Positions 6,401-53,578 of a stretch of 64,000 bases of DNA are shown piece after piece (the first letter of the stretch is position 1; each line of letters opens with the position of its first letter). Origin of the DNA: a virus (taxonomy: Duplodnaviria; Heunggongvirae; Uroviricota; Caudoviricetes); IMG/VR virus record IMGVR_UViG_3300031759_000002. One strand, 5' to 3'. Below the pieces are notes generated by a model. It made no database searches and was not told the DNA's origin. It worked only from the letters and a program-made list of their open reading frames with translations. A program made the position numbers and the translations under genes.

Positions 6401-6590
6401 TCAAATAATAAAAGAATGGTGGGAACTTAAACGTCCCATGTGGTCTAATGTCAGAGTTGTTATTGATGATAATATTGCGTTTTTATATGCTAAATTAACA
6501 TCTAAAGATAATGATAGAACGGTTGCTCGTATTTATATTAAAGGTATAACTTCTACGGATGATTTAAATCCATATGAGTATTGGGGTTAA
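6369..6590 (+). CDS. hypothetical protein
   Basis: Short ORF overlapping the 3' end of the previous gene. Confidence 0.25.
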   Translation: MCIFREGVITNQIIKEWWELKRPMWSNVRVVIDDNIAFLYAKLTSKDNDRTVARIYIKGITSTDDLNPYEYWG

Positions 6591-6632
6591 AATAACTTTA
6601 CAGTAAAAATAAACCTGATATAATATAGTGAA

Positions 6633-7379: not shown

Positions 7380-7385
7380 ATGTAA

Positions 7386-7601: not shown

Positions 7602-8388
7602 AGAAAAAAATAATATTAGATGTCGAGAATATAGAAAAAATAATAAAGAATATTTTATTAAGTATAGATTGAAAAATAAAGAAGAAAATAAAGAAGAAAA
7701 TAAAGAAAAAAATAAAATATATAGAGAAAAAACAAAGTATAAACGAAAAGAATATTTTATTACTTATAAGAAGAATAACAAATATAAAATAAAGCAGAAC
7801 AGACATAATTATTATATTAAAAATAAAGAAAAAGTTAAAGAACAAAGCAAAATATATTGGTCCACTCGCAAAGAAAAGAGGTCTATTTATCACAAACAAT
7901 ATCATCTTAAAAATAAAGAGAAACGATCCAATTCCGGTAAGATATATTATGTGGAAAATAGAGAACATATAAAAAAACGATATAGAAATAATAGAGTTCA
8001 TATAAATGAAGTTCGGAAATTAAGAAGAAACAATAACATAAATGTTAAAATAGGATGTAATTTAAGAACCCGATTGTGGTGTGCTTTAATGGGTAATGCT
8101 AAATTGGGTTCGGCAGTTAGAGATTTAGGATGTTCTATTTCAGATTTTAGAAAATATATTGAAAGTAGGTTTAAACAGGGAATGACTTGGGAAAATTATG
8201 GAAAAAACGGATGGAACTTGGATCATATTATTCCTATTAGTTTTTTTGATTTAACAAATAAGGAAGAACTATTAAAGGCAGTTCACTATACTAATATACA
8301 ACCACTATGGGAAACTACTGCGATAGCAAGGAAAAATGGAGATATGATATCAATTGGAAATATTGAAAAACGAAATAAAATAAGTTGA
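7456..8388 (+). CDS. HNH homing endonuclease with a long K/E/N-rich repeat N-terminal region
   Basis: C-terminal GWNLDHIIPISFFDLTN...NIQPLW is an HNH motif. It is paralogous to the C-terminus of 55598..56233. The N-terminus has YxxKNKEK-type repeats. Confidence 0.6.
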   Translation: MKQKNNLETPNENGDVTITPEIEKNVVKKECSTILTTKEKRAKYHQKNKEKNNIRCREYRKNNKEYFIKYRLKNKEENKEENKEKNKIYREKTKYKRKEYFITYKKNNKYKIKQNRHNYYIKNKEKVKEQSKIYWSTRKEKRSIYHKQYHLKNKEKRSNSGKIYYVENREHIKKRYRNNRVHINEVRKLRRNNNINVKIGCNLRTRLWCALMGNAKLGSAVRDLGCSISDFRKYIESRFKQGMTWENYGKNGWNLDHIIPISFFDLTNKEELLKAVHYTNIQPLWETTAIARKNGDMISIGNIEKRNKIS

Positions 8389-8419
8389 TTTTTTACAAGT
8401 TTTATATTAAACTTGGATT

Positions 8420-8716
8420 ATGAGTGATATAAAATATGTAACGGCACCTTGGTCTGATGATTTGGTTAAAAAATTAAATGATTACCAAGAAAATGGAGGA
8501 GGACATCCTTATACATGTGGCCCATGTAGGGATAAATACCATACTCGATTTGTAGTTAAAAACAATAAATTAGTAAGGGAAACCGAAGAAGATTTTAACG
8601 ACCTCAATAAAAAATTTGTAAGTATGGACCGAAACTTAGTTGCGACTAAATGGGGTTGGGTATGTCATACTTGTGATGATATCCAAGATTGGTGTATTGA
8701 CCTTGAATTGATGTAA
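8420..8716 (+). CDS. hypothetical Cys-containing protein (CGPC...CHTC)
   Basis: Possible Zn-binding pairs. Paralog of 5026..5286. Confidence 0.35.
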   Translation: MSDIKYVTAPWSDDLVKKLNDYQENGGGHPYTCGPCRDKYHTRFVVKNNKLVRETEEDFNDLNKKFVSMDRNLVATKWGWVCHTCDDIQDWCIDLELM

Positions 8717-8891
8717 TAAATAATTTATGTGGAATATAAAATCTAATAAAAAAGGAACCAGATTAACTATAATTACAAATAAAAGTAGAGCATTCATATC
8801 TGCATATATAAAATATGAAGATAAAAAAACAGGAATTGTGGATGATGTAAAATTATACGTTCCATTTAATAGTTGGAGGAAAACATAATAT

Positions 8892-9848
8892 ATGATTAAA
8901 TTTGAATTTGAAGAAGAAATTGACGTAAGTAAAACTTCATCTTTATGGGTGGAGAAATATAGACCACTTAAAATTGAAGATTTCATAGGAAATGAAGATT
9001 TACTTAAATCTATACGAATGTGGCTTGATAAAAAAGAAATACCGCAGATATTACTATACGGAAGCCCCGGAACAGGTAAAACCAGCCTTGCTAAATTACT
9101 GATTAAAAATATTCCATGTGATTCATTGATGGTAAACGCATCGGATGAAACTGGTATTGACTCGATGCGTAATAAAGTGCAAGATTTTGCAATGACAACT
9201 GGATTTCAACCTCTTAAAATAATATTTTTAGATGAGTTTGAACGAGTTTCTCCTGAAGCACAATGTATGCTTAAAAATCTAATGGAGACATATTCGGCTT
9301 CCGTTAGATTTATTTTAACTTCTAATAACCAAGACAAAGTTATAGAAGCAATTCGTTCTCGTTGTCAGTCGTTTGAAGTTAAACCGATGGATAAAGTGGC
9401 AGTAATGAAACATTTAATTAAGATATTAACACTTGAAAAAATTACATTTAAGAATGAATCGGTTGCGTTTATAGTAAAATCTTATTTTCCCGATTTAAGA
9501 AAAATAATCAATTACGCTCAACAATGTATAGATGGAACTGAACTTAAGATTTCAAATGTATCATCCATTGATTATGACTATAAATTAAAATTGGTAGAGT
9601 TAATAAAACAATCTCCGTCAAATTGGAAAGCATTTACTGAGATACGACAACTGGTGGCAGACGCTTCGTTTTCTAATTATGGAGAAGTATATAAGTATTT
9701 ATTTGAAGTAGTCGATACTTATAGTGGAGATAAGTCGCCCGATGTTATTTTAATTTTAGCCGATGCAGTTTATCAAAGTACATTAGTATTTGAACGAGAA
9801 ATAACATTTGTAGCAACAATTCACAAAATATTAAAGACAATAAAATAA
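8892..9848 (+). CDS. clamp-loader AAA+ ATPase large subunit (T4 gp44 / RFC-like)
   Basis: EKYRP, Walker A GSPGTGKTSLAK, Walker B/DExD FLDEFER, SRC motif (IRSRCQSF). GGAGGA Shine-Dalgarno upstream. Confidence 0.8.
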   Translation: MIKFEFEEEIDVSKTSSLWVEKYRPLKIEDFIGNEDLLKSIRMWLDKKEIPQILLYGSPGTGKTSLAKLLIKNIPCDSLMVNASDETGIDSMRNKVQDFAMTTGFQPLKIIFLDEFERVSPEAQCMLKNLMETYSASVRFILTSNNQDKVIEAIRSRCQSFEVKPMDKVAVMKHLIKILTLEKITFKNESVAFIVKSYFPDLRKIINYAQQCIDGTELKISNVSSIDYDYKLKLVELIKQSPSNWKAFTEIRQLVADASFSNYGEVYKYLFEVVDTYSGDKSPDVILILADAVYQSTLVFEREITFVATIHKILKTIK

Positions 9849-9853
9849 AATAT

Positions 9854-10093
9854 ATGACAAAAGAACGAGTAAATCTAATATTGGAAAATACACTTAAAGT
9901 ATTTGGTTCTAGAGAATGGTTTAGAGATGTAGTAGTATATCCCAAACACGAAGATAGTGGACTCCCTACTATTGAACTTAAGGTAAATTATGTGCCTATG
10001 GTGGAACGCAAAAATGTTATCGAGTTCTCTCAGGCGGCTGGGTGTTCTTATTTTTTCACTTTAGTAGACCAAAATGGAAATAAAGCCAACTAA
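9854..10093 (+). CDS. hypothetical protein, at the position expected for a small clamp-loader subunit
   Basis: 79 aa, immediately downstream of the gp44-like gene. No motif recognised. Confidence 0.3.
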   Translation: MTKERVNLILENTLKVFGSREWFRDVVVYPKHEDSGLPTIELKVNYVPMVERKNVIEFSQAAGCSYFFTLVDQNGNKAN

Positions 10094-10175
10094 TTTAAAC
10101 GTTGGGTCATTACATATAATAAATTCATAAAAATAATTTATATTTTTTCCATATTGTACTATATTTATAGTATGT

Positions 10176-10961
10176 ATGGAACATAAAATATATAAATTAC
10201 AAAATAAAATAAATGGAAAATTATACATAGGAAGAACTAAAAATACATTAAATGTTCGTATGAAGACTCATAGGAGTCCATATTCTAATTCATATTTATC
10301 ACGAGCATTACGAAAATACGGAGAACATAATTTTAGTAAAGAAATTATATATACTACTAATAATTTTATAGATGTATGTGAAAAAGAAAAGACTTTTATA
10401 TTAAAATATAATTCATTGGCTCCTACTGGATATAACCTAAATTTAGGAACATATGGAAATGAAGTTATGAGTGAAATTACAAAAAATACATTAAGTAAGT
10501 TAAATCAAGGAAATCATTCTAAAAATAAAAATTCATCATCTAAGTATATAGGAGTTCATCAACGCCGGGACGTAAAAGGAGATACTCATTTTGAGGTTAA
10601 AATATATAAGAATAAAAAGAATTATCGTCATTATTTTCATTCTGAAATTGAAGCTGCTGAGGCATATGATAAAGTTGCTCTCTATTTATATGGGTTAAAC
10701 TGTAAACTTAATTTTTCAGATAAATTATCAGTTTATAGAAATATAAACTTAAAACAATTTTTTATAGAGTTTTGTAAAAAATTTAAGTCTTCTTCCCAAT
10801 ATACTGGAGTATGCAAATCTACTAAAAGAAGTAAACTTCCTTGGAGATCTTATGTTTATATAAATAGAAAATATATTGAATTAGGAACATTTTTAACAGA
10901 AGAAGAAGCATATAATGCTAGAAAAAAATATTTAGAAGAACATAAATTAAATAATGATTAA
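10176..10961 (+). CDS. GIY-YIG homing endonuclease with two AP2-type DNA-binding domains
   Basis: N-terminal KIYKLQNKINGKLYIGRTKN...RMKTHR is a GIY-YIG core. YIGVHQRRDVKGDTHFEVKIY...EIEAAEAYDKVALYLYGLNCKLNF and YTGVCK...WRSYVYI...LGTFLTEEEAYNARKKY are AP2-like. Confidence 0.7.
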   Translation: MEHKIYKLQNKINGKLYIGRTKNTLNVRMKTHRSPYSNSYLSRALRKYGEHNFSKEIIYTTNNFIDVCEKEKTFILKYNSLAPTGYNLNLGTYGNEVMSEITKNTLSKLNQGNHSKNKNSSSKYIGVHQRRDVKGDTHFEVKIYKNKKNYRHYFHSEIEAAEAYDKVALYLYGLNCKLNFSDKLSVYRNINLKQFFIEFCKKFKSSSQYTGVCKSTKRSKLPWRSYVYINRKYIELGTFLTEEEAYNARKKYLEEHKLNND

Positions 10962-12039
10962 TGCTACTTTATCCATAGTATCAAGTTCATTGATACGTGG
11001 AATATTATATTATGGGCAGTACGGAACTAGCGGTTATGCACAGGCTGCAAAAGGATATTTATTTAATTATTTCTCAAGAGGAATACCTATAACATGGGAA
11101 CCATTATATTTCGATGACTCAAAGTTAAATAGTGATGATGTTTACGATATAGTTATAAAATCTTTAATATATAAAGATATAAAAGAATATAATATGGCTA
11201 TATTACATAGTACTCCTGATTTATGGACCAAGTTTTGGATAGATAAAAAGAATAAATTAAAGGATAAATCAGTATACGGATATTGTACTTGGGAAACTAA
11301 TATACTTCCTACTCAATGGGTTAATAGTATAAACTCAACCGTAAATGAAGTATGGTGTCCTTCACAATATAATAAAGCGGCATTTAAAGATTCAGGAGTA
11401 ACTATTCCTATTAAAGTAGTTCCTCATATATTTCTTCCTAAAAAACTTCCCGATAAATCTACTATTAAATTAACTGATAGTATAACGAATAAAGAAATTA
11501 CGTCTCATGATAAATACACGTTTTATTCCATTGGTGAGTTGAATGCTCGTAAAGGCATATCTGATTTAATTCATACATATTGTAAAACATTTAATCGGCA
11601 AGATAATGTCCGATTGATATTAAAAACACATTATAAATCATATAGTAATGAAAATAAAGAGTATTGTAAATCCTTAATAATTGATATATTAAAACAATAT
11701 AATAATACGCCTGAAATAATATGTCTATTAGATAACCTAAGTAGTGATGAAATATTAGCATTACATTCATTGGGAGATTGTTATGTTAGTTTAACTAAAT
11801 CAGAAGGATTTGGACTTACTATATTTGACGCTTTTCATTATAATAATGAAATTATTTGTACTGGTTACGGAGGACAGATAGATTATCTTGGATTTAATTA
11901 TAATGGATTGGTTAAATATAAAATGGGGAAAGTAGAAGGAATGGAATCGTTTTCAAATATATATACCAGTGAAAGTGAATGGGGATTGCCAGACCTAGAA
12001 CATGCTAGTGAATTAATGAAAAAATTTTATAAAATATGA
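10954..12039 (+). CDS. glycosyltransferase, GT-B fold, family 1 (GT4-like)
   Basis: C-terminal SLTKSEGFGLTIFDAFHYNNEIICTGYGGQIDYL matches the GT1 E(x7)E/GGxxE-type motif region. Confidence 0.55.
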   Translation: MINATLSIVSSSLIRGILYYGQYGTSGYAQAAKGYLFNYFSRGIPITWEPLYFDDSKLNSDDVYDIVIKSLIYKDIKEYNMAILHSTPDLWTKFWIDKKNKLKDKSVYGYCTWETNILPTQWVNSINSTVNEVWCPSQYNKAAFKDSGVTIPIKVVPHIFLPKKLPDKSTIKLTDSITNKEITSHDKYTFYSIGELNARKGISDLIHTYCKTFNRQDNVRLILKTHYKSYSNENKEYCKSLIIDILKQYNNTPEIICLLDNLSSDEILALHSLGDCYVSLTKSEGFGLTIFDAFHYNNEIICTGYGGQIDYLGFNYNGLVKYKMGKVEGMESFSNIYTSESEWGLPDLEHASELMKKFYKI

Positions 12040-37673: not shown

Positions 37674-38095
37674 ATGGAAGACCCCGATTATCTTGGGAAG
37701 AAACTTGTCTGCGTCTGGCATATGATATTGCCAAATATAGAAGTGAAGACCCTTACGTTCAAGTAGGTGCATGTGCTTTAAAAAAGAATGGAAATGATTT
37801 TGCATTGGGATATAATGGAGCATTACCTAAACATGATATAGATTGGTCAGATAGAGATGAACGAAGAAAACGAGTAGTTCACGGAGAAGCCAATGTATTA
37901 AATAGAATATTACCATATGAAGTTGAGTTTTTAGCAGTTACTCATTTACCTTGTCCCGAATGTATTAAAATTATTGGTTATAAACAAATATCGAAAGTAT
38001 ATTATTGTGAAGAGATGGAAAAATACCCCAATGAACTTACCAAGCAACTTGCTAAAGAATGGAACATTGAACTAATACAGATGAATATTAAATAG
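37670..38095 (+). CDS. dCMP deaminase (CDA-fold zinc deaminase)
   Basis: VHGEANVLNRI (HxE) and LAVTHLPCPECIKII (PCxxC). Confidence 0.7.
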   Translation: MNGRPRLSWEETCLRLAYDIAKYRSEDPYVQVGACALKKNGNDFALGYNGALPKHDIDWSDRDERRKRVVHGEANVLNRILPYEVEFLAVTHLPCPECIKIIGYKQISKVYYCEEMEKYPNELTKQLAKEWNIELIQMNIK

Positions 38096-39038
38096 GATAT
38101 ATTAATGCCCAACCTTTGGAAGTAAATATTTTATTATTTATTAGTTTATATAAACTATCAATACAAAGATTTGCTTTTAATTTTAATTCGTGTCTAGTTC
38201 CTACAAATATTTCGCCAGTTTTGTTATGGATAAAATTATAAATAGTATTATCAAATGCGTGATTTTCCTTCCCTCTATATTTTCCAGTTCTTGATTTACT
38301 AAGTTTTTGTTTTGTTTCCTTGGACATGTGAGTTCCTTTCATTGGAGATCCATATTTTTTGATCCGTTCTCTTGTCGCAATTCCAACTGCTAATCTATGT
38401 TCCAAAGAAATAATTTTACCTCTATTGGCATCGCTCATTTTTTGTTTGGCTTCATCTGTATGTCTATACCCAGTATGAACTTTGCTTAATTTTTTACGAG
38501 ATTCCTTTGTCCATACTCTGTTTTTATTTGATGCTCTAACACATTCTCGCATATAATCAGTTACTTCTAATCTATCGGCTATAAACTGTATGTTATATAC
38601 ATTATCTATTTCTGATTTTGCTATATCTAAATATCTTTGTTCTACAATTTTTAATAATTCTATAGGAACATATTCTATAATCATTATATAAAAATTATCT
38701 TCTCCAAATTTGTTCCATGCTCTTTGAAGATGTCTGTTTCTGTGTTTTTTAGATTTTAGTGCCCATAAATGACCATATTTAATTCTAATTCTAATATTTT
38801 TAGCACTTCCTATATAGTATTTGTTATTTGTTTTATTTATTATTTTGTATATTCCACTTTTTTTTGTTATAGTATCGTCGCATATTTTTAATATTGATTT
38901 TTCTTTTGTGTTTATTATAGTATCTATTTCCTCTGGCACGTTGCTGTTCGAGTAATTCTTCTCTGGTTCTATATAACTTTTTTCTTCCCATATTTTTTCT
39001 TTCTCTTGACTTTGGTTTAATTTTGATGTATCATTCAT
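38088..39038 (-). CDS. GIY-YIG homing endonuclease (I-TevI/Seg-like) with NUMOD3 repeats
   Basis: SGIYKIINKTNNKYYIGSAKNIRIRIKYGH...NRHLQRAWNKFGEDNF. C-terminal IYNFIHNKTGEIFVGTRHEL. The catalytic domain starts about 60 aa into the ORF. Confidence 0.65.
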   Translation of the reverse strand: MNDTSKLNQSQEKEKIWEEKSYIEPEKNYSNSNVPEEIDTIINTKEKSILKICDDTITKKSGIYKIINKTNNKYYIGSAKNIRIRIKYGHLWALKSKKHRNRHLQRAWNKFGEDNFYIMIIEYVPIELLKIVEQRYLDIAKSEIDNVYNIQFIADRLEVTDYMRECVRASNKNRVWTKESRKKLSKVHTGYRHTDEAKQKMSDANRGKIISLEHRLAVGIATRERIKKYGSPMKGTHMSKETKQKLSKSRTGKYRGKENHAFDNTIYNFIHNKTGEIFVGTRHELKLKANLCIDSLYKLINNKIFTSKGWALIYPI

Positions 39039-39810: not shown

Positions 39811-40266
39811 ATGAATACATTTTATTTTATACATAATTATAATTACGATCCAAAAATTCACAATGAAGCCGCATCTGATAAAACATTACATAGCATTTCT
39901 GATATAGTAATAGATGGAAATGTTATTGTAAAAAATAGAAGAGTATGTGATAAGCAGAATATTTTTATATCAAGTGATGATATACTATTGAGTATTGCTA
40001 AATATACGGAAGGCACTATTGTAGCCAGAACCTCTCCATCATTAAGAGATGAATGGAAGTTAAAACTTCAATATCAGGTTAATGAATATAATAAAATTAG
40101 AGATACTGTTCTTAAATCTACATTAGATGATATAGAAAAAAGATTATCGGTGTTATATCCCGTATTACCAGATGAGGTTTTAGAATATTGGGCATTTGAA
40201 GCAATTAATCGTGGATGTGATTCTACAATTAATAGAATTGAACGTGAATATGGAATTGTAAAATAG
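39811..40266 (+). CDS. hypothetical protein
   Basis: ORF only. Confidence 0.35.
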   Translation: MNTFYFIHNYNYDPKIHNEAASDKTLHSISDIVIDGNVIVKNRRVCDKQNIFISSDDILLSIAKYTEGTIVARTSPSLRDEWKLKLQYQVNEYNKIRDTVLKSTLDDIEKRLSVLYPVLPDEVLEYWAFEAINRGCDSTINRIEREYGIVK

Positions 40267-40535: not shown

Positions 40536-41810
40536 GAGTCAGAAAGCCCCTTCGGCTTTAGCCAAGGGGATGAATGACGACCATATTAAGGAAACAGAAA
40601 TAAAATAACATTTTCCTTAAAGTGGATGATATGTATGTTATAGAATGAAAGTAAAACGCAATTACAAGTTCAAATTGTCTCCCAAAGGAGGCAGTGCTAT
40701 CCGTCTCCAAGAGACGCTGAATACTTGTCGCTACGTTTATAACCAACTCCTTGAGAAGCGAAACGACCACTACAAGAAGACCAAGAAAACTTTAACTCAC
40801 TTTGATTGTTGTAAAATAATTAAGGATATGGAACTGAAAACTCCAGTCCATTCGCAAGTCCTCCAAAACGTATCTGCCCGACTTGACCTTGCCTATCTTG
40901 GGTTCTTCCGCAGATTGAAGGATAAGAGTGGAAAAGCAGGTTTCCCACGCTTTAAGTCCTATGACCGGTATGACTCCTTCACCTTTCCACAGACAGGATT
41001 TAAGATAGGAAAGAAGAAAATGTGGATGTCCAAGATTGGAGACGTTCGTATTAACTTCCACCGACCAATGGAAGGCAAGGTAAAGACCTTGACCATTAAG
41101 CGTGAAGGCACACATTGGTATGCTATTTTCTCGTGTGAAGTTGAAGTGAAGATTGAAAAACGAAAATGGAAACGAGCAGTTGGGATTGATGTTGGATGTA
41201 TTGACTTTGTGACCTGTTCGGATGGAACCACTATTCCTAATCCTCATTTTCTTAAACAATCACAGGAGAAACTTTCCAAAGTCCAAGGTAAGTATTCCAA
41301 ACTGAAACTTAAACCGAAGGATGACAAGACGAAGATAAAGACCAAGAGAGAATTGGTTAAACTCCATTGTAGAGTGAAGAACCAACGAAAAGATTTCCTA
41401 CACAAGTTGAGCAAGAAACTAGTGAACGAGTATTCTCATATTTGTGTGGAAGATATTCGACCAAGCCAAATGTTGAATGACAATTGGCGAGCGTTGAATA
41501 GAAGCATATTGGACTCGGGTTGGGCAGCATTTAGACAAATGCTCCATAGTAAAGCGGTAGAAGCTGGCTGTGAAGTAGTAAATGTTGACCCACGATACAC
41601 GACCCAAATATGCTCGGGATGCGGAACCATTGTTAAGAAAGAGTTGTCAGAAAGACAACACAAATGTCCTATTTGTAATCTTAACATTGGTAGGGATTTG
41701 AATGCTGCAAGAAATATTTTAAGAGTCGGAATGGACTCTTTTTCTAACGCAAGTTAGGATAGAAGCCCAACCTCTTTAGAGGTTGGGAGCATTCACAGCC
41801 TCTTTTCTTT
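40536..41810 (+). mobile_element. IS200/IS605-family element carrying only tnpB (IS1341-like). GC-rich relative to the phage. Hairpin-rich LE (40543..40570) and RE hairpin cccaacctc-ttta-gaggttggg (41766..41787).
   Basis: Abrupt GC jump. Subterminal hairpins at both ends. Inserted intergenically between 40270..40491 and 41813..41975. Confidence 0.6.
40645..41757 (+). CDS. tnpB: TnpB (OrfB_IS605) RuvC-like RNA-guided nuclease
   Basis: RuvC-I GIDVGCIDF, RuvC-II ICVEDI, Zn finger CSGCG...CPICN, RuvC-III GRDLNAARNI. Confidence 0.9.
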   Translation: MKVKRNYKFKLSPKGGSAIRLQETLNTCRYVYNQLLEKRNDHYKKTKKTLTHFDCCKIIKDMELKTPVHSQVLQNVSARLDLAYLGFFRRLKDKSGKAGFPRFKSYDRYDSFTFPQTGFKIGKKKMWMSKIGDVRINFHRPMEGKVKTLTIKREGTHWYAIFSCEVEVKIEKRKWKRAVGIDVGCIDFVTCSDGTTIPNPHFLKQSQEKLSKVQGKYSKLKLKPKDDKTKIKTKRELVKLHCRVKNQRKDFLHKLSKKLVNEYSHICVEDIRPSQMLNDNWRALNRSILDSGWAAFRQMLHSKAVEAGCEVVNVDPRYTTQICSGCGTIVKKELSERQHKCPICNLNIGRDLNAARNILRVGMDSFSNAS

Positions 41811-43956: not shown

Positions 43957-44817
43957 TTAAACAATTTTCCATTTATATTCTAACTCTTTTACGGGACATT
44001 TCCCTATAAGTTTAAAAAATTCTTCTACTTGAGTATCACTTAGTTTTAATAAATATGACTGAGTTCCATCTTTTCGAATTCCTTTCTTTGATAGTGTAAA
44101 TTTAAGATTAAATTCGTTCTTTAATTTTACACATAACCATTCTAAATCTTTTTTTGTAAAATTATTTGTGCAAAAAAATACTCGTGTATATTTATACTCG
44201 GTTGTTTTGTACCGCTGTTTGTAAAAATATGAATATCCATCATCCAAAAACCAATGTAATAAACTTTCCTTTGTTAAAACAATATCTTTCGGTATAATCT
44301 TGATTCCATTCGGATACCATTTATTTCGCAATTCGGCTATTTCTGGTAATTTAAATGTATTTAGAAAATATACTGGCTTTCCATTTGGAGTTAGGTTTGT
44401 AGAAGATTCATATGGACCAAAAATTCTTGATTCTGGGATTTTTGTCAATATTTTAGAGGCAAAATATAATAGATGATTATAATGGATATTTCGTTTGGAT
44501 ATTCCACAACTTCCATTTTTTATACGTTGTTTAGTAATAAACGCATCTCCTAGAAGAGATCCATTGATTACTGGCATATTTAGTTTTAAATAATTAACAT
44601 TAGCATTGCGTTTACGTTCACTATAACTTCGCATCGGAATATTAAATTTTTTAAGATTTCTACTAATCGTTGCTCCGTTCGCACAGCCTACTAACTTGGC
44701 AATTTTTTCTGTATTTAATTTTTCAACTAAATATTTCTGATATAGCCATTCTTTATTATTTAATAATGGAAATGGTGATGTATCTTTAGTAAATTGTTTT
44801 TTATTCATATCCTTCAA
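43957..44817 (-). CDS. LAGLIDADG homing endonuclease (double-motif) with an N-terminal HTH
   Basis: LLGDAFITKQ and WFLDDGYSYF LAGLIDADG-type motifs. N-terminal EKIAKLVGCANGATISRNLKKFNIP is HTH-like. Confidence 0.55.
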   Translation of the reverse strand: MKDMNKKQFTKDTSPFPLLNNKEWLYQKYLVEKLNTEKIAKLVGCANGATISRNLKKFNIPMRSYSERKRNANVNYLKLNMPVINGSLLGDAFITKQRIKNGSCGISKRNIHYNHLLYFASKILTKIPESRIFGPYESSTNLTPNGKPVYFLNTFKLPEIAELRNKWYPNGIKIIPKDIVLTKESLLHWFLDDGYSYFYKQRYKTTEYKYTRVFFCTNNFTKKDLEWLCVKLKNEFNLKFTLSKKGIRKDGTQSYLLKLSDTQVEEFFKLIGKCPVKELEYKWKIV

Positions 44818-44866: not shown

Positions 44867-46141
44867 TTATTTACACTCTAATAAATAATTGATTTTTACT
44901 CTATTTTCAGAATAAACAATTAATTCATCGTTTTTCAATCTATTTGAAGAAGCCTTGGCCCAAATACTATCATAATTAGTCGGACGTTTACATCCATATG
45001 CCGTAGTGGTATATGTTTTACCCATTGCGAATGAGCATATAAATAAAAATGCTGCATCACCTACTCCACCTTGAGACCATTTGTTTAAACAATATCCTAA
45101 ACTTTTTGTACTATTAACCGACCCATAAATTCCATTATCGAATAATTTTCCGGCTATGGCTGCTGTAGATGGAGGATTAATTTTTAATCCACTTTTCAAT
45201 ATTGAAAGAACGTTTGCCATTGAACTTCCGTGGAAGGTTTCCACTATGTTTGGATCAGTGTGTAAAAAGTTTGAAGTCATTGTGTTAATATCAACTTTAT
45301 ACATTTCCTTTACTCTAATATTATCATATCCATGCATTGACTTCTTTGATTTTTCAAAAAAATTATTAAGCCTAGATCTTTCATTATTATCATTTAATAT
45401 ATCTAAATTAACTTTAAATACTTCCTCTGTTGTCTGATTTTGCGGTAAAGATTGAGAAGTTGGTTGAAGTGCTTGATATGACGCACTTAAAGAATCTAAG
45501 ATGTCTAATTGTTCTTGTAAAGCCTCATTATTAGGAATTATAGTTATTGGCTGGATTTTTTTCATACCTAAACTTTGAGGTATTATAGTAAGATATTTAA
45601 ATACTAGTTTATTAAATTCATTATTAAACCTGTTTTGATTTACTAAAGTTGATATGTCGGCTAATATTAAACGGGCCTCATCTATTCCATATTTATCGAT
45701 TAATCCGAGTGGTGTACTAAATAATCCAGTAGTTGAATTATATGTAATTTGAGTGCTACTGGTAATCTTATGAATATTAGAATCTACCAAGCGTTTAATT
45801 AAACGCTCAAGAATTGGATTGGAAGTTTTAATAATTTGTTTCTTGGCAATTTCTAATAAATCGGAGTTTTTCACCGTAACTGATGGAGTGGATGAAGCAG
45901 TTGCCGACCCAATGGTTTTTTGTTCTACATAGCCTTTTTTTAATTTTTCAGACACTTTCTTGTTAAAATATTTCTCGCCACCATCCCATTCTCCGCTTTG
46001 AGGGTGCTCCGCACCGACCCTCGCATATTGAATTTTTACTTTTCCATCATCATATAGTTGAGCATTCCACCATTTATACGAATTAGTTTCGTCGTTTTGC
46101 TCCAAAAAGATCAATCTCGCTTCTTTAATTAAGTTACTCAT
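44867..46141 (-). CDS. WGR-domain poly/mono-ADP-ribose polymerase (PARP catalytic H-Y-E)
   Basis: N-terminal WGR: KWWNAQLYDDGKVKIQYARVGAE...KKGYVE. C-terminal FHGSSMANVLSILKSGL (H-G-S), GIYGSVNSTKSLGYC (Tyr), NDELIVYSE (Glu). Confidence 0.6.
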   Translation of the reverse strand: MSNLIKEARLIFLEQNDETNSYKWWNAQLYDDGKVKIQYARVGAEHPQSGEWDGGEKYFNKKVSEKLKKGYVEQKTIGSATASSTPSVTVKNSDLLEIAKKQIIKTSNPILERLIKRLVDSNIHKITSSTQITYNSTTGLFSTPLGLIDKYGIDEARLILADISTLVNQNRFNNEFNKLVFKYLTIIPQSLGMKKIQPITIIPNNEALQEQLDILDSLSASYQALQPTSQSLPQNQTTEEVFKVNLDILNDNNERSRLNNFFEKSKKSMHGYDNIRVKEMYKVDINTMTSNFLHTDPNIVETFHGSSMANVLSILKSGLKINPPSTAAIAGKLFDNGIYGSVNSTKSLGYCLNKWSQGGVGDAAFLFICSFAMGKTYTTTAYGCKRPTNYDSIWAKASSNRLKNDELIVYSENRVKINYLLECK

Positions 46142-46571: not shown

Positions 46572-46841
46572 TCAAGGATTAACTATTGCCGCAGTAATTG
46601 GTTTGTCATTTGGTATTAGTTGTTTCATAATTTCCGAATGCGGCACCATAATAGTTATGATTTTAACTGCTTCAAACTCATTAGTATCTTGGTATTCTTT
46701 TAATTTTTCATTTAACCAACAAAATGGATTTTCATTATACCCATATTCATCCATCGCTTCCAATACTTCAGGAGCATATTCTCCGTCATATTTTTCTTTT
46801 CGTTGTCCTATAAGGAGATGTATATTCATAATGTTTAACAT
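46572..46841 (-). CDS. hypothetical acidic protein (likely start at second Met, 46829)
   Basis: The -10 box overlaps the first ATG. The second ATG is 10 nt downstream of the -10. Confidence 0.35.
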   Translation of the reverse strand: MLNIMNIHLLIGQRKEKYDGEYAPEVLEAMDEYGYNENPFCWLNEKLKEYQDTNEFEAVKIITIMVPHSEIMKQLIPNDKPITAAIVNP

Positions 46842-46867
46842 TATATCCTAATCTGATTGATTGTCAA
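46840..46867 (-). promoter_or_regulatory. consensus promoter TTGACA-N16-TATAAT, 22 nt from the first CRISPR repeat
   Basis: Minus strand: gataTTGACAatcaatcagattaggaTATAATgttaaacattATG. Confidence 0.55.
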
Positions 46868-46889: not shown

Positions 46890-47141
46890 GTGTCATTAAA
46901 TAATAATTTGTTTATCATCTAACACTCGGTGTTGCTGTCGCCTGACGGTTCCGTTTACGTTGTGTCATTAAATAATAATTTGTTTATCATCTAACACATT
47001 TGATAATTATGGACTTACATATAAACCATATTTGTGTCATTAAATAATAATTTGTTTATCATCTAACACTTCACCCTTCATCGTATATATTACTCCATCA
47101 CTGGTGTGTCATTAAAGAAGCAAATGTGGATTTAATCACAT
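46890..47141 (+). CRISPR. orphan CRISPR mini-array: three identical 36-bp repeats (GTGTCATTAAATAATAATTTGTTTATCATCTAACAC) plus one degenerate terminal repeat, with three unique 36-bp spacers
   Basis: R1 46890..46925, S1 46926..46961, R2 46962..46997, S2 46998..47033, R3 47034..47069, S3 47070..47105, degenerate R4 47106..47141 (first 11 nt identical, about 22/36 overall). Exact 72-bp periodicity. Repeat termini GTGT...ACAC. No cas gene in the window. Confidence 0.75.
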
Positions 47142-47146: not shown

Positions 47147-47632
47147 TTAATTATTTAAATAAAATCTAACAAGTTTATAATAATCTAATTTCTTTTGAAC
47201 TTTCAAATCGGACATATTATGTTGTAAATCCGCCAGTTTAACTATTCTGGAAAATAGGTTAGATTTAATATTATCCAAATAAATAAATAAATCAAAATCT
47301 TTATTTGATTTTGTTAAATACATTACATTATTAACTATAAATTGATAATGTGAAGTAAGCGGCTGAATATCACGAATCAATTCTAATTCTGTAAGATTCG
47401 TGTCTTCAATTGTATCGTGAAGATATGCAATACTGCGAATAATTTCAATATTTTCATTTATTTCAGATTCCAGCATAATTGAACTTTTAAGTTCGTTTTT
47501 TAAGATTTCCTCTGAAATATTTGCAACTGCAATCGGATGAGTTATATATGGTAAACGACATCCATATTTTCTATATTGACCGTCGTGCGCTTTCGTCGCT
47601 ATTTCTAATATTTTATCGCTATAATTATTCAT
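47147..47632 (-). CDS. RelA/SpoT-type HD-domain hydrolase (small alarmone hydrolase / Mesh1-like)
   Basis: AHDGQYRKYG...PYITHPIAVA...LHDTIEDT matches the SpoT hydrolase signature (HD...ED). Confidence 0.65.
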   Translation of the reverse strand: MNNYSDKILEIATKAHDGQYRKYGCRLPYITHPIAVANISEEILKNELKSSIMLESEINENIEIIRSIAYLHDTIEDTNLTELELIRDIQPLTSHYQFIVNNVMYLTKSNKDFDLFIYLDNIKSNLFSRIVKLADLQHNMSDLKVQKKLDYYKLVRFYLNN

Positions 47633-48183: not shown

Positions 48184-48249
48184 ATTGCCACAGTTTATAG
48201 ATTATTTTCTATTTGTCAACCCTAAAACTTTAGTACATTTCATATTATC

Positions 48250-48301: not shown

Positions 48302-48685
48302 TTATCCCTGAGTTTGTATGTATTTTTTGATTGTTTCTGGAGATGCTTCCCCAATGGAACAAACGAAGTATCCATCAGAGAATAGAGTATTTTCCTTCCA
48401 ATAATGCCCTTTGAGAAATGCTCTATGTTTTTTGTATATTCTAAATGTTGAAATGGACTTGAAGTTATTCATCATTTCTAATACCGACTTTGTAGGAGGA
48501 TAGTCAACCATTAGGTGTATGTGGTCATCGTCCGTCTCCATTGCTTTGATGATAATATCCTTCTCATTAGCAATATCATACATAATCTGCTTCAAGTCAT
48601 CACTCAATGCTCCCGACAATATCTTTTTACGATATTTAGTTGAAAAAACTAAATGGAATTGGAGCAGATACTTGCTATGGCTCAT
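48302..48685 (-). CDS. tnpA: IS200-like Y1 (HuH) transposase TnpA
   Basis: HuH motif HIHLMV. Catalytic Tyr region DGYFVCSIGEAS. Typical length of about 130 aa. Confidence 0.85.
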   Translation of the reverse strand: MSHSKYLLQFHLVFSTKYRKKILSGALSDDLKQIMYDIANEKDIIIKAMETDDDHIHLMVDYPPTKSVLEMMNNFKSISTFRIYKKHRAFLKGHYWKENTLFSDGYFVCSIGEASPETIKKYIQTQG

Positions 48686-49292: not shown

Positions 49293-49778
49293 ATGAAACA
49301 CAAGAGAAATTTTTGTAAATGTGGAAAAGAAAAAGACGTGCGGTCTAATTGGTGTCGTGATTGTTTTTGTATTCTTTATAAAAACGGAGAAATTGAAATA
49401 TTGACCGAAAAAACAAGAGAAACAATGAGAAATAAACAACGGCATTTGCCTCCCTTTCGTTCCTTATATAATTTTCTTCTAAATTCTCAAAAACATAGAA
49501 CGAAAAATATTATTGTAGATTTAACTTTTGATGAATTTCTTGAATTAACAAAAATTTCCAATTGTCATTATTGTGGGGAATTAGTTAAATGGGAACCATA
49601 TCGAAAGGTAGGTGCCACCTGTGCTTATAATTTAGATAGGAAAAATAATAAAATTGGTTATACAAAAGAAAACTGTGTAGTTTGCTGTAAGGGATGTAAT
49701 ATGTTAAAATCATATTTTGATGATAACGAATTCCTTTCACGAATACAAAAAATATCCAAAAATCTAAAACTATGTTGA
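49293..49778 (+). CDS. HNH-like zinc-finger nuclease (variant: DR in place of DH)
   Basis: CHYCGELV...NLDRKNNKIGYTKENCVVCCKGCNMLK. Confidence 0.4.
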   Translation: MKHKRNFCKCGKEKDVRSNWCRDCFCILYKNGEIEILTEKTRETMRNKQRHLPPFRSLYNFLLNSQKHRTKNIIVDLTFDEFLELTKISNCHYCGELVKWEPYRKVGATCAYNLDRKNNKIGYTKENCVVCCKGCNMLKSYFDDNEFLSRIQKISKNLKLC

Positions 49779-50911
49779 GTTACAATACCACACTTTTAGG
49801 AGATTGTCAAGAACTGAAAAAGTTGCTTGAATACGAAAGGTTTGTATTCAACCTTGCTTCCAAGGAACAACTACCAGAAACAAAGAACTCTCTTGTAGTT
49901 CTTCACTCCAAAGTGTATAAAAATGTTCGTAAGTCAAATCCAGAAATCCCATCCCAAGTAATAATCAAAGCAGAACAAGAAGTTCTTGCTTCCTATCGGT
50001 CTGCGAAATCCAATAAGCATAAGAAAACTCTCATTGTAAAAAAGAACCTCTCAATGAGATTGGATAAACGACTTTACTCAATCCCAGATAAGTTTTCTAT
50101 TCGCATCACGACCACAGGAAAACGACAGACCTTCAAGTTTGTTGTCTATCCACGACTGAAAGAGTTGATGGAAAAATACGCATACCAAGACCCTCTAATA
50201 TATGTGGATAATGATAAAGTATGTATCGCTTTCTCTTTTGAAAACAAAGTTGAAAAACTCAAACAACGATTGGCATTAGGAGTGGACATCGGCATCCGTA
50301 GGAGTGCTGCTTGTTCGGATGGGCGACTTATTATTGATAAGAAGTTCAACGGTGAAAAACGAAGATTGAGATACTTGAAAGACAAACTCAAATCCAAGGG
50401 AACGAAGAGTGCCCGTAGGAAACTTCGTTATTCGTTACGAAGAAAAGAACGAAACAAGAACAAGAACCAAACCCATCTAATTTCCAATGCCGTTCTCCGA
50501 ACGGAAGCCGATACAATTTGTCTTGAAAACCTCAAGAGCATAAAAAGAAAGAAACACAAATACCAAAATAAAAGAAGTATATCACAAGTTCCAATGTTTG
50601 AACTCCGTAGAGTAATAACCTATAAGGCACAGAACCAAGGTAAAACTGTTCTGTTTGTTTGCCCTTCCTATACATCACAACGAGACTCGGTAACGGGTAA
50701 AGTCGAAGGTGAAAGAAGAGGTTGTAGATTTTACTCTAAAGTAAATGGAATGATATATGACTCGGACATCAATGCTGCTATCAACATTGGAAAAATGTCC
50801 AAACATCCCGTATCACAGACCACAAATCTGACTTATGGGCAGGCGTCAGTCAATACGCCATACGAATATAAGTCCCGCTCCTCGGGGCCGTTCAAGCACC
50901 TATCCCTTTAG
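49772..50911 (+). CDS. tnpB: TnpB-like RuvC nuclease (IS605/IS1341 family)
   Basis: RuvC-I LGVDIGIRRSAACSDG, RuvC-II ICLENL, RuvC-III DSDINAAINI. Degenerate Zn finger. The TAG stop lies inside the terminal hairpin. Confidence 0.8.
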   Translation: MLSYNTTLLGDCQELKKLLEYERFVFNLASKEQLPETKNSLVVLHSKVYKNVRKSNPEIPSQVIIKAEQEVLASYRSAKSNKHKKTLIVKKNLSMRLDKRLYSIPDKFSIRITTTGKRQTFKFVVYPRLKELMEKYAYQDPLIYVDNDKVCIAFSFENKVEKLKQRLALGVDIGIRRSAACSDGRLIIDKKFNGEKRRLRYLKDKLKSKGTKSARRKLRYSLRRKERNKNKNQTHLISNAVLRTEADTICLENLKSIKRKKHKYQNKRSISQVPMFELRRVITYKAQNQGKTVLFVCPSYTSQRDSVTGKVEGERRGCRFYSKVNGMIYDSDINAAINIGKMSKHPVSQTTNLTYGQASVNTPYEYKSRSSGPFKHLSL

Positions 50912-50949: not shown

Positions 50950-50977
50950 TTGACAATCAACTATAATATTCTTTATA
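50950..50977 (+). promoter_or_regulatory. duplicated promoter-like element (aaagaataccTTGACAatca; 20 nt identical to 54211..54230) with a weak -10, antisense to the 3' end of the repeat-protein gene
   Basis: TTGACA-N16-TTTATA/TTATAT, followed by a 12-codon ORF (MESFVYISGWKR). Confidence 0.3.
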
Positions 50978-53578
50978 TATATGGAGTCGTTCGTCTATAT
51001 ATCCGGTTGGAAGAGGTAAATCATTAAATTTAAAATACTTTATAAGCTCGTTAGTTTCTGAGCAAGTCGAATATGCAAATAAGTCGTCTATTTGGTCTTT
51101 TGATATTTTTATATTTTTGTCTAATAACATGTCTAACGTTTTTACTTTATTTGGGGCATGGTTTACTATATAACTTACAACTTTAGGGTCTTCAAGTGGA
51201 ATATCTCGATTAAGTAAAATATAGACTGTTTTTGGTTTTTGACTATGAGAGGAATACCTGATTAAGTTACTAACATTGTTAGAAGTTAGAGGTACATTAT
51301 TGTTTAATAAAAATTCAACCAAATCATCCCTATTATATGAATTATTTAATAATTCTTCTACGTTTTCATCGCTAAATATAGTATTTATTGACATTCCCGA
51401 TTTTAATAATGCGTCTAGGTTTTCTTGTTTATTTACAGCCGTTATAAATATATTTGTGTCTATTGGGGTTGATAATTTATTTATATCAATTCCTTTATTT
51501 CGTAATGTCTCTATCGTTTTAAGTTTATTCGGAGTATATTTAATTATTGAACTTATAATTTCACCATTCAATGTAACATTATTTATTATATAATCTGAAA
51601 TTTGCATAGAATTGGGAAAATTATGTAATAGATAGTATATATTATCAGGTTTTAGTGGAACATTTCTACTCAATAGATTTTCTAATGTTTTTATTTTATC
51701 GTTTGATGCTTGATAAATAATATTTATAGAAGTTGGAGATAATTGAATATTCTTACTAAGTAAAGCATCAAGCGTATCCAATTGGTTGGGAGATTCTACT
51801 AATAAATAATCTATTACCGTCTTTGTCATTTCATAATTGTTTAATATATACTCAATCGATGCTTGTTTATTAACCGAATATCTTAAAATATTAATAATAT
51901 TACTTTCATCCAATCCAATATTATGACTTAACAACCAATCAATTGAATGTTTTTTATTATTTGCTGTGATTATAATATGGTTTATCACATCGTTTGTAAA
52001 TATTTTATCTTGCGGCATTCCACATTTCAGAAACATATTGATTACTGATTCTTTATCATCCGAATCATATATTGAGGATTGTATGCAATACTGTGATAAT
52101 ATAATATCTTTATTTGTTATATAATCTCCTATCTGTTGTTTATTTGGAGCATTTATAATTAATTTTATTATACTTTCCATATCTAATTCTATATTTTTAC
52201 TTAATAAATAATCTACAACTTGTTGTTTATCCATTACCGTTTTTAACATATATTCTATATTGTCAGAAGTAAATATAGCATTTGGTAAAACTCCTTTTAC
52301 GTTTAATAAAAACTCTGCTACATCTTTTTTATCGGGGGAGTGTGATAATAAATTATGAATGGTAATATCATCCAGAGGAATATCTTTATTTAATAACATA
52401 TGAACTATATATTTCTTATCTGGAACTATAGTAAGCATCGACCCCACTATATTACTAGTTAATTGAATATTTTTATCAAATAAAATATTAACCATTTTTA
52501 TTTTATCAGTTGCAGCCCGCAATAGACGTTCTACAATATCATCATCAAATTGAATATTTTTATTTAATAATATTTCCAGCGTTTTTTCTAGGTCTGGAGA
52601 ATTGGATAATAATACAGTTATATTATAATCTGTAAGCGGAATATCTCGATTAAGTAAAATATCAATAAGTCCCTGTTTATCTTGAGTTCTATTAAAAAGA
52701 CTATCTATATTAGATTCTGTTAATGGGATATTTGCGGCTAAATAATGTACAACTTGAGGAGAGTTTTGAACACAGTGTAGTATATTTGTAATATCATTAT
52801 AACTTAATTCGTCTTTTTTATATTCTATATATTGTTTAAGATTTTTAATATTTTTAGTTAATGCTTGGTAATTAATATGTTTACGTCTTACTGATTTTTC
52901 TTCGGAATATGGATTATCCAACACTCTATAAACGCTGAATGCTCTTTTATTTGTAAAGAATGCTTGACATTTTTCATTTCCATGTATAACTCCTCTTCCT
53001 TCATCTATAACCAAATCATATCCAAGATTCTTATATAATAATATGTTCCATATAATGGTCGGTTTTGTATTTTTAATTTGAGCAATCATTTCCGACAGTT
53101 TTTTACAAAAATACCAAAACTCTCCAATCTGCTCTCTGGAAAATTTCGTATTTCGACTACATGAAGCTTTAAGGATTTGTAATGCATCCGGCTCAAAAAA
53201 ATGTGAATATACACTTATTAATTTATCTATGTCTTGATTTCCTTGTTCTTTGGTATATGTAGTTATATTAAGTTCTCGAATGCCTTCATTTTTTTTAAGA
53301 ACATATAGATATGGATGTTCCGATGCAAATGGAAAATCAATTCCTAATTTATTATTTTTAGTATAATAGTTCGATGCGGTTTTAAGTGGATAACAATACA
53401 GTCCAAGAGGAGTATCATAGTTACTTTTTGGATTTATTCCGATTTTGGCAATTGCAGTAAATGATACAAACAAATCGTCTTGTTTTGAAAACTCTAATAT
53501 TTGAGACGCCACTGAGGTTTTCGGATTTAACTTGGGATGACTTCTTCTTTCAACTATAAGGTCAATTAGCTTAATCAT
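50957..53578 (-). CDS. large tandem-repeat protein (about 20 copies of an approximately 35-aa L/N/I-rich helical repeat); unknown family
   Basis: Repeating LLN(R/K)(D/N)IPL...(D/N)I...LL units. A 25-nt identical DNA repeat occurs at 51198..51222 and 52638..52662. Confidence 0.5.
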   Translation of the reverse strand: MIKLIDLIVERRSHPKLNPKTSVASQILEFSKQDDLFVSFTAIAKIGINPKSNYDTPLGLYCYPLKTASNYYTKNNKLGIDFPFASEHPYLYVLKKNEGIRELNITTYTKEQGNQDIDKLISVYSHFFEPDALQILKASCSRNTKFSREQIGEFWYFCKKLSEMIAQIKNTKPTIIWNILLYKNLGYDLVIDEGRGVIHGNEKCQAFFTNKRAFSVYRVLDNPYSEEKSVRRKHINYQALTKNIKNLKQYIEYKKDELSYNDITNILHCVQNSPQVVHYLAANIPLTESNIDSLFNRTQDKQGLIDILLNRDIPLTDYNITVLLSNSPDLEKTLEILLNKNIQFDDDIVERLLRAATDKIKMVNILFDKNIQLTSNIVGSMLTIVPDKKYIVHMLLNKDIPLDDITIHNLLSHSPDKKDVAEFLLNVKGVLPNAIFTSDNIEYMLKTVMDKQQVVDYLLSKNIELDMESIIKLIINAPNKQQIGDYITNKDIILSQYCIQSSIYDSDDKESVINMFLKCGMPQDKIFTNDVINHIIITANNKKHSIDWLLSHNIGLDESNIINILRYSVNKQASIEYILNNYEMTKTVIDYLLVESPNQLDTLDALLSKNIQLSPTSINIIYQASNDKIKTLENLLSRNVPLKPDNIYYLLHNFPNSMQISDYIINNVTLNGEIISSIIKYTPNKLKTIETLRNKGIDINKLSTPIDTNIFITAVNKQENLDALLKSGMSINTIFSDENVEELLNNSYNRDDLVEFLLNNNVPLTSNNVSNLIRYSSHSQKPKTVYILLNRDIPLEDPKVVSYIVNHAPNKVKTLDMLLDKNIKISKDQIDDLFAYSTCSETNELIKYFKFNDLPLPTGYIDERLHIYKEYYS

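Follow-up and report, generated by a model that had tools for sequence, protein, structure and literature searches.

A CRISPR-like repeat-spacer array in the putative early-gene region of a T4-like freshwater jumbo phage: architecture, genomic context and candidate roles

A 252-nt locus in a phage genome raises two questions that have to be kept apart: whether its regularly spaced repeats form a CRISPR-type array, and, if they do, what such an array might do in a region in which no cas gene is recognised. The locus lies within a stretch of 64,000 nt of phage DNA, the whole of which is referred to here as the window, and it was described in the original prediction, from the letters of the window, as an orphan CRISPR mini-array that would be served by Cas proteins of the host, or by ones encoded elsewhere in the phage, and plausibly used against competing mobile elements or phages. 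The architectural part of that description is borne out by the analysis presented here; the strand on which the array is likely to be read, the genomic scope of the word “orphan” and the proposed function each call for revision.

The repeat, which reads GTGTCATTAAATAATAATTTGTTTATCATCTAACAC on the plus strand, occurs in three exact copies with a period of 72 nt (Table 1), and no further copy was found elsewhere in the window at up to three mismatches; when the search was extended to about 90 kb of the phage, including the surroundings of the tnpA gene at 48302-48685, neither partial copies nor copies at up to 12 mismatches were found. None of 100 dinucleotide-preserving shuffles contained a match to the repeat. 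The three intervening spacers are 36 nt long, have pairwise identities (10-11 of 36 positions) at the level of shuffled controls, and resemble the flanks no more closely than shuffled sequence does, so that the exact counts and the shuffles together confirm the predicted arrangement of three identical repeats, unique 36-bp spacers and a decayed fourth repeat. Two T's immediately 5' of the repeat are common to all three perfect copies, and the unit can therefore be drawn as 36-38 nt and the spacers as 34-36 nt. No open reading frame of 26 aa or more was found across the array, and a simple k-mer CRISPR detector identified it as the sole structure of its kind in the window and in all of the phage loci that were fetched. 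Tandem Repeats Finder made no call in the region, as is expected where the spacers are unique. The locus is thus non-coding and contains at least three near-identical direct repeats, of a length within the 23-47 nt that characterises CRISPR arrays, which are regularly spaced and separated by unique spacers of similar length; its architecture, with a degenerate repeat at one end, is that of a CRISPR-type repeat-spacer array. Arrays with only three spacers are assigned the lowest evidence level by standard CRISPR callers (the CRISPRCasFinder scheme).

Because unrelated spacers of equal length stand between repeats that are 100% identical, the array is not a diverged tandem duplication of a 72-nt unit. 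The pattern reflects either the insertion of spacers or strong selection acting on exactly half of each unit, and insertion is favoured by the complete identity of the repeats, the chance-level likeness of the spacers and their exactly equal length. The composition of the spacers, whose G+C content ranges from 19% to 56%, suggests that they derive from different, partly foreign sources: spacer 1, singled out in the original prediction as far richer in G+C than the phage, is indeed a compositional outlier, its 20 of 36 G+C positions being reached by just 0.5% of the 36-mers in a window that is 30% G+C. The separation of the locus from iterons and tandem repeats also holds, given the unique spacers of equal length, the absence of a tandem array in the output of Tandem Repeats Finder, a repeat of 36-38 nt and a neighbourhood in which no initiator or Par gene, as would mark an iteron or partition site, was found; the protein-binding repeats of such sites are short (about 11-22 bp) or fully tandem.

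Table 1. Positions, in the window, of the array elements and of the gene and predicted promoters next to them
Feature	Position	Strand	Remarks
Predicted sigma-70-type promoter, perfect TTGACA-16-TATAAT	46840..46867	-	12/12 consensus positions; 22 nt beyond last minus-strand repeat
Repeat 1, perfect	46890..46925	-	Exact copy; last repeat if array is read on minus strand
Spacer 1, 56% G+C	46926..46961	-	Unique; top 0.5% in G+C; no protospacer found
Repeat 2, perfect	46962..46997	-	Exact copy
Spacer 2, 19% G+C	46998..47033	-	Unique, unrelated to other spacers; no protospacer found
Repeat 3, perfect	47034..47069	-	Exact copy
Spacer 3, 39% G+C	47070..47105	-	Unique; also in independent Logan contig; no protospacer found
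Degenerate fourth repeat, 23/36 positions identical	47106..47141	-	First repeat on minus strand; keeps first 11 nt of the repeat (TTTAATGACAC), abutting spacer 3
SpoT-like HD (p)ppGpp-hydrolase-type gene	47147..47632	-	Pfam HD; TIGR00691 N-terminal region; phrog_990
Promoter-like site TTGACA-16-TAAACT	48192..48219	-	Ahead of 110-aa, 77-aa and HD genes; consensus match only

The window corresponds to approximately positions 284,284-348,283 of JGI contig Ga0316229_1000015 (353,817 bp, sample 3300032676), which was located by exact-protein look-up, and a second assembly, Ga0316223_1000010, is 353,739 bp long with a different start point; the same genes, among them the one that adjoins the array, are found on about 16 contigs of 0.2-1 Mb. 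From the two assemblies with different starts and from these contigs it follows that the genome is about 354 kb long and is present in many samples, and it is probably complete. The window makes up 18% of this 353.8-kb genome, and the window together with its flanks (about 90 kb) makes up about 24%. The phage was recovered from lake metagenomes. The array is not an artefact of a single assembled contig, since both of its edges occur in Logan contigs from SRR11285593, which were assembled independently and break inside the repeat, as is usual with k-mer assemblers; one part of this material reproduces the left flank with repeat 1 and another a partial repeat with spacer 3 and the start of repeat 3, and spacers 1 and 2 were seen in the JGI assembly only. 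There was no sign of spacer turnover, the array edges being identical in all samples seen. As to the nature of the replicon, the T4-like family-B polymerase (PolB), the clamp loader and the many homing endonucleases encoded on the 353.8-kb contig confirm that it is a phage, and one that is T4-like; it also has genes for an SNF2 helicase, dUTPases, thymidylate synthase, DHFR and ligase.

The genes around the array are those that were originally described, namely a PARP gene, the SpoT-like HD hydrolase gene, an IS200 tnpA gene and two tnpB genes. On the minus strand, 5 nt separate the stop codon of the HD gene from the array downstream of it, so that the array is effectively the 3' end of the HD operon. 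All genes between about 42 and 49 kb are on the minus strand, and almost every small gene among them is preceded by a near-consensus promoter-like site on that strand, in a series of the form TTGACA-16-TATA(A/C)T at 49092, 48219, 46867 (12 of 12 positions), 46575, 46317, 43953 and 42653; this layout of genes and promoters is that of a T4-type early region. On the basis of its match to the consensus, the site at 48219 is a candidate source of a transcript reading into the array, and no terminator-like site was found between the two. The predicted promoter immediately beyond the array is assigned to the next small gene (85-89 aa, 46572-46841).

The two strands of the array also differ in their predicted RNA structure. 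The original description of the repeat as largely unstructured is true for the plus strand only, on which the repeat RNA folds with -2.8 kcal/mol (z = -0.8). The minus-strand repeat RNA, GUGUUAGAUGAUAAACAAAUUAUUAUUUAAUGACAC, is predicted, from this one sequence only, to form a hairpin of 12-14 bp with -7.9 kcal/mol (z = -3.0, a stability reached by 3 of 200 shuffles), in which three G·U pairs become C·A mismatches on the other strand. For the full array the corresponding values are z = -3.6 on the minus strand, with none of 200 shuffles as good, against z = -1.5 on the plus strand, and each repeat keeps its own predicted hairpin when the full-length minus-strand transcript is folded. Exactly 8 nt separate the upper 9 bp of the stem from the 3' terminus of the repeat, and this 3' end, AAUGACAC, is identical at 6 of 8 positions to AUUGAAAC, a likeness seen by direct comparison of the two. 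AUUGAAAC is the canonical Cas6 handle, known from type I and III repeats. The degenerate repeat, however, stands at the transcription-proximal end when the array is read on the minus strand; repeat decay is usual at the leader-distal end, and the minus-strand orientation is weakened by a decayed repeat that would then come first. The minus strand is favoured as the transcribed strand, short of being settled, and the plus orientation that was implied in the original prediction is doubtful, since the neighbouring genes and the near-consensus promoters are all on the minus strand.

The next question is whether proteins that could use such an array are encoded nearby. The statement that no cas gene lies in the 64-kb window is upheld by Pfam, NCBIfam, PADLOC and PHROGs, all of which were negative, and when the JGI Pfam calls are added, no Cas family was recognised in the window and the 10 kb adjoining it on each side. 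The description of the array as “orphan” is therefore accurate for the roughly 24% of the genome that is made up of the window and its 10-kb flanks, and is too broad as a statement about the whole genome; likewise, the search of the remaining genome for cas genes that was proposed with it has been carried, with a negative result, as far as 10 kb beyond either edge, or about 24% of the genome. Two genes of the window were considered as possible Cas components and rejected. The HD protein is not a Cas3''/Cas10-type HD nuclease, as it matches the N-terminal region of SpoT/RelA hydrolases and the phage “metal-dependent phosphohydrolase” family phrog_990, and the 873-aa reading frame at 50957-53578, which has the size of a Cas13bt or CasPhi effector, encodes a protein of repeats of about 38 aa that shows no HEPN or RuvC features and has no library matches.

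Relatives of the repeat were sought in several collections. In IMG/VR, exact patterns for the full repeat, for the repeat-spacer-repeat junction and for the central 24-mer gave no matches. A pattern fixing the ends of the repeat gave a single chance match, in Flavobacterium and with no array, among the 185,579 species genomes of GTDB, and an ends-only pattern gave none in the JGI metagenome collection, which does not contain the source contig; both patterns fixed 20-22 exact bases, and a host repeat of about 80% identity, as for phage N-1, would escape them. The Rfam CRISPR-DR models did not match the repeats at E<=10, blastn of the repeat against INPHARED phages and PLSDB plasmids returned nothing significant, and a literature search for the repeat sequence found nothing relevant. 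The 11-mer occurring twice at CRISPR spacing was found at 92 metagenome and 7 viral loci, which were rejected because all of them are satellites or coding tandem repeats. The suggestion that the repeat matches no known family thus agrees with Rfam, INPHARED, PLSDB and the exact-pattern searches of GTDB, JGI and IMG/VR, and the proposed search for a cognate host through its repeats, which on the large collections was run with exact patterns, found no related repeat.

The spacers were treated in the same way. Exact central 26-mers of all three gave no matches in IMG/VR, nothing was found in INPHARED or PLSDB, and there was no match at up to 10 mismatches in the window, its flanks and 215 kb of DNA from the phage itself and its relatives. 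The proposal that IMG/VR, phages and plasmids be searched for the origins of the spacers consequently led to no protospacer, and the claim that the array works through host Cas proteins against competitors is without direct support, neither a host repeat, nor a protospacer, nor conservation in relatives having been found.

The relatives in question can be defined through the genes next to the array. The WGR-PARP gene has 644 homologues at E<=1e-5, the best 120 of which are 53-68% identical and some of which lie on contigs of up to 364 kb, while the PARP proteins of deposited phages are at most 32% identical, and this set of homologues defines a large uncultured clade. On the contigs that were traced, no array was found at or near the syntenic sites of the PARP homologues (53-68% identity) or of the HD homologues (48-56%), and the array is confined to this phage population. 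It stands in a plastic, hypervariable early-gene region containing IS200/IS605 elements and homing endonucleases, which, taken together with its absence from relatives at the loci syntenic for PARP and HD, suggests that it was acquired recently.

Several known systems resemble the array without coinciding with it. Cyanophage N-1 carries a cas-free array of four spacers that is transcribed during infection and cleaved by the Cas6 of the host; its repeat and the most similar repeat of the host differ at 6 positions, and no targets are identifiable for its spacers (bioRxiv 10.1101/2020.04.14.041012). The present array is similar in that it belongs to a lytic phage of myovirus type, is short (three spacers as against four), is accompanied by no cas gene in the approximately 24% of the genome that was examined, has no identified spacer targets and has a repeat that is not identical to any host repeat found. 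It differs in that the host, the transcription and the cleavage by host Cas6 are established for N-1, whereas the present array is known from sequence alone, and in that the N-1 repeat belongs to a recognised cyanobacterial family and is 73-84% identical to host repeats, whereas the present repeat has no known relative. The virus-borne mini-CRISPR arrays (Faure et al. 2019; Medvedeva et al. 2019, PMC6858448; PMC11656645), which have been proposed to use host Cas proteins against competitors (PMC6858448; PMC11656645), are likewise viral, very short and cas-less, as the present array is in the region examined, but they hold one or two spacers rather than three, and they have repeats identical, or nearly so, to those of the host and spacers that match related viruses. 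Neither was found for the present array, whose spacers matched nothing in the 215 kb from the phage and its relatives, IMG/VR, INPHARED and PLSDB.

The compact arrays of huge phages, which may use host Cas proteins (Al-Shayeb et al. 2020, PMC7162821), provide a further parallel: the present phage, too, is a metagenomic jumbo phage of more than 200 kb, and its array is compact and may depend on Cas proteins of the host; most of those arrays, however, adjoin phage cas genes or share the repeat of the predicted host, and neither was found here in the approximately 24% examined. The Racr (PMC10651486) and Cracr (bioRxiv 10.1101/2024.10.29.618823) elements are similar as cas-less repeats in intergenic phage DNA, near promoters and small accessory genes, and Cracr arrays hold two or three spacers, compared with three in the present array. 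Racrs and Cracrs, in contrast to the present repeat, which has no known relative, are at least 90% similar to known repeats or to the CreA/CreR RNAs of the host, and their spacers correspond to promoters of host cas genes; the spacers of the present array are of full length. A Racr is, moreover, a single repeat with no other within 100 bp and at least 90% identity to a known repeat, and here four repeats are clustered.

The explanation that we tentatively prefer, as the most probable single account of these observations, is that the locus is a cas-less CRISPR-type mini-array which is transcribed from the minus strand and yields crRNA-like guides that are loaded into Cas proteins supplied in trans, as cyanophage N-1 and some huge phages give precedent for. 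Its transcription would take place at an early stage of infection, as the 3'-terminal part of the operon of the 110-aa, 77-aa and HD genes or possibly from a weak promoter that overlaps with the last part of the HD gene. Each repeat in the resulting RNA would fold into an A/U-rich hairpin, and a Cas6-type (class 1) endoribonuclease, coming from the host or from the phage genome outside the region examined, would cut near the 3' base of the hairpin and leave a handle of about 8 nt, AAUGACAC in place of the canonical AUUGAAAC. The crRNA-like products would then load an effector, also supplied in trans, and direct it to foreign or host sequences that match the three spacers. We infer the class 1 character of the system, and the part given to Cas6, from the repeat and spacer lengths, the predicted hairpin and the handle-like 3' end. 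A further reading, which we regard as rather improbable, is that the repeat represents an uncatalogued class, belonging either to an undescribed Cas or TnpB-derived system encoded in the remainder of the genome or to the CRISPR system of a freshwater host that is uncultured and absent from GTDB, with the array serving as an early offensive guide set.

Other readings retain the CRISPR-type architecture and assign the array a different partner or purpose. It might be an anti-CRISPR RNA array of the Racr/Cracr type, acting as a decoy for Cas6/Cas7-type proteins or, by way of partially matching spacers, reprogramming host Cas to silence cas or defence genes of the host, with no attack on competitors. 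Arrays of two or three spacers are documented among the Cracrs of phages, often beside small anti-defence genes (PMC10651486; bioRxiv 10.1101/2024.10.29.618823), and the present array lies among small early genes with strong promoters, together with a PARP gene and a gene of alarmone-hydrolase type; the target of spacer 1, given its high G+C content, could be a gene of the host instead of an AT-rich phage, and the absence of phage protospacers in the IMG/VR 26-mer search would be expected. What makes this reading about as improbable as the uncatalogued repeat class is that Racrs are solitary repeats at least 90% identical to known host repeats, whereas the present repeat matches none known, that the spacers are of full length (34-36 nt) and uniform, and that the flanking reading frames matched no recognised Acr or Aca family. 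More improbable still is that the array is served by an effector encoded in the phage itself, either a CRISPR-Cas or TnpB-derived, V-U/V-F-like protein outside the examined region or one of the nearby TnpB proteins. Huge phages often carry compact CRISPR-Cas systems, including V-U, V-F and CasPhi, with arrays of about six repeats (PMC7162821). With about 24% of the present genome examined, about 76% lies outside, and at least three TnpB genes occur within the approximately 90 kb covered; the complementary termini GTGT...ACAC of the repeat, which we take to recall those of Cas12f and Cas13b repeats, would also fit. Arrays normally abut their own cas genes, however, and nothing Cas-like was found within about 47 kb on one side and about 27 kb on the other. 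Both TnpB genes in the window are ordinary: the second (49772-50911) passes the curated TnpB threshold, with 110 bits where NF040570 requires 100, and falls far below that of the Cas12f2 model (47 against 450), and the closest relatives of the first (57-92% identity) are found on other jumbo-phage-like contigs, not in bacteria, and without arrays. The nearest TnpB gene, moreover, is 2.6 kb from the array, an opposed operon and the IS200 tnpA gene stand between the second TnpB gene and the array, and neither an anti-repeat, nor a tracrRNA-like complement, nor a partial repeat copy was found in the window beyond chance, so that the adjoining Cas12-like effector and the anti-repeat of a type V-U or V-F locus are both missing.

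The reading to which we give the most weight after the preferred one, although we hold it to be unlikely, is that the repeats have nothing to do with CRISPR and are hairpins in the 3'-terminal RNA of the HD operon (stabilisers, RNase sites or a small-RNA cluster) or protein-binding DNA sites that are evenly spaced by chance. With a stop codon 5 nt away on one side and the next promoter 22 nt away on the other, the array is placed as the stabilising hairpins of 3' untranslated regions typically are; the repeat, which is imperfectly palindromic, has the size of REP elements, an IS200-family Y1 transposase gene (tnpA) lies 1.2 kb away, and neither a Cas partner, nor a host repeat, nor a target was found in the collections searched. 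Arrays with three spacers or fewer are, in addition, often false positives. REP and BIME elements, iterons and centromere-like sites are, however, short, tandem or alternating in orientation, and do not have equal unique spacers between identical repeats, whereas the present spacers are unique and exactly 36 nt long between 100% identical repeats of 36-38 nt. Nor do the repeats behave as REP-like or regulatory hairpins or as IS200/IS605 ends do in other respects: such hairpins recur, and the array is a single locus in about 90 kb; it has no likeness to the sequences flanking tnpA and tnpB; the hairpin is not followed by a U-run and is therefore not an intrinsic terminator; and the dependence of the strand asymmetry on G·U pairs speaks against a palindrome that acts purely at the level of DNA. 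The array might, finally, be an inert and passively carried relic, part of a CRISPR array of cellular origin that arrived by illegitimate recombination or with an IS element. Its lineage specificity in a region rich in IS elements and homing endonucleases, the decay that one repeat has already undergone and the lack of visible spacer turnover, with edges identical in all samples seen, are what such a relic would show. We nevertheless hold this to be as improbable as an effector encoded by the phage, since three repeats are still 100% identical over 36-38 nt in a genome of 30% G+C, the array is kept in every assembly of the phage population (16 contigs with the adjoining gene), and phages are under strong pressure to shed useless DNA, even though 252 nt is a small burden.

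Phage arrays without cas genes have been documented since 2016-2020 and the category is not new, so that the high interest originally claimed for the locus was too high, such arrays being already established (bioRxiv 10.1101/2020.04.14.041012; PMC7162821; PMC11656645). The present one stands out for its repeat, of which no relative is catalogued, and for the T4-like jumbo phage that carries it, which is deeply divergent. If the array works, a T4-like freshwater jumbo phage joins the few lytic phages in which guide RNAs are encoded and Cas proteins are not; if it does not, it is a caution that three-spacer “arrays” in phages can look perfect and yet lack all functional support. The cognate Cas system, once identified, would name the host of a large uncultured clade with hundreds of PARP-encoding relatives, and might reveal an uncharacterised CRISPR variant. 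The pointers to the host that are provided by the replication genes disagree, the best match of PolB being in Microcystis phage Mel-JY01 (38%) and that of the clamp loader in Pseudomonas PA5oct-like phages (39%). The recoding of TAG throughout the genome, at which a tRNA-CUA gene hints and which would cast doubt on the predicted reading frames, was rejected for the window, which has a coding density of 80% under the standard code and in which TAG ends 6 of 73 open reading frames.

The two independent JGI assemblies of the phage (353,817 and 353,739 bp) have different genome start positions, and each spans the ends of the other, as seen when L006, the beginning (1-11650) of the second assembly (contig Ga0316223_1000010), is compared with the right end of the window. 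Because the assemblies start differently and overlap across each other's ends, they are consistent with a complete genome of ~354 kb that would be circularly permuted or circular. At E<=1e-5 the WGR-PARP protein matches 644 homologues. The top 120 share 53-68% identity with it, lie on metagenomic contigs of up to 364 kb and mark a large uncultured jumbo-phage clade. Identity does not exceed 32% in the phages on deposit (XacN1, Xoo-sp13, and phages of Klebsiella and Cellulophaga).

Coordinates of features in the window, except where another locus is named
Feature	Position	Strand	Basis
Repeat protein, 873 aa	50957-53578	-	
Homing-endonuclease-type genes	43957-44817, 49293-49778, 24839-25549, 38088-39038, 10176-10961	-, +, +, -, +	
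EF-Ts homologue	57474-58142	+	
PTH2 peptidyl-tRNA hydrolase	27429-27749	-	
R2K-type ATP-grasp protein	56280-57158	+	
SIR2-family protein, just beyond window edge	L004 (another locus) 8250-8996		
Sigma-70-like promoter sites	49092, 48219, 46867, 46575, 46317, 43953, 42653	-	consensus match
TnpB-1	40645-41757	+	
TnpB-2	49772-50911	+	
IS200-type Y1 TnpA	48302-48685	-	
Third TnpB	L006 5386-6333		
tRNA, anticodon CUA (amber suppressor)	28041-28115	-	ARAGORN; Rfam
ORF, 151 aa, TAG stop at 40266	39811-40266	+	
ORF, 73 aa	40270-40491	+	
WGR/PARP_reg/PARP-domain protein	44867-46141	-	

Within ~90 kb of the phage genome there are three or more TnpB genes, together with one Y1 TnpA of the IS200 type. The TnpB-1 island is richer in G+C (37% vs 30%). 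Since the proteins closest to TnpB-1 are 57-92% identical to it and come from other contigs that resemble jumbo phages, among them GCA_902729835.1 (326 kb), large phages seem to pass this TnpB lineage around. Homing-endonuclease-type genes (LAGLIDADG, HNH/EndoVII-like and GIY-YIG/NUMOD3) are also dense in the window, and the gene at 49293-49778 shares 7 nt with the beginning of TnpB-2.

Near-consensus sigma-70 promoters (TTGACA, 16-nt spacer, TATA[A/C]T) recur regularly on the minus strand between 42600 and 49100, where they precede almost every small gene of that strand, the same layout as in T4 early regions. The promoter at 46867-46840 (-) matches the consensus perfectly (12/12). Because its -10 box runs into the first ATG of the ORF that follows, the 85-aa product would be near-leaderless.

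The CUA tRNA is called tRNA-Pyl by ARAGORN and scores 63.6 bits against the Rfam tRNA model. Wholesale recoding is absent from the window, because TAG is the stop in only 6 of its 73 ORFs and the standard code gives a coding density of 80%. The 73-aa ORF shares its reading frame with the preceding 151-aa ORF, so that suppression of the intervening TAG would join both into one product. Genes related to translation and NAD are present as well, coding for a homologue of EF-Ts, PTH2, and R2K-type ATP-grasp and SIR2-family proteins.

Apart from a faint ankyrin match, the 873-aa protein matched nothing in Pfam, PHROGs, NCBIfam or PADLOC; it consists of ~20 units of a leucine/isoleucine-rich repeat of ~38 aa (...LLNKNIPL...).
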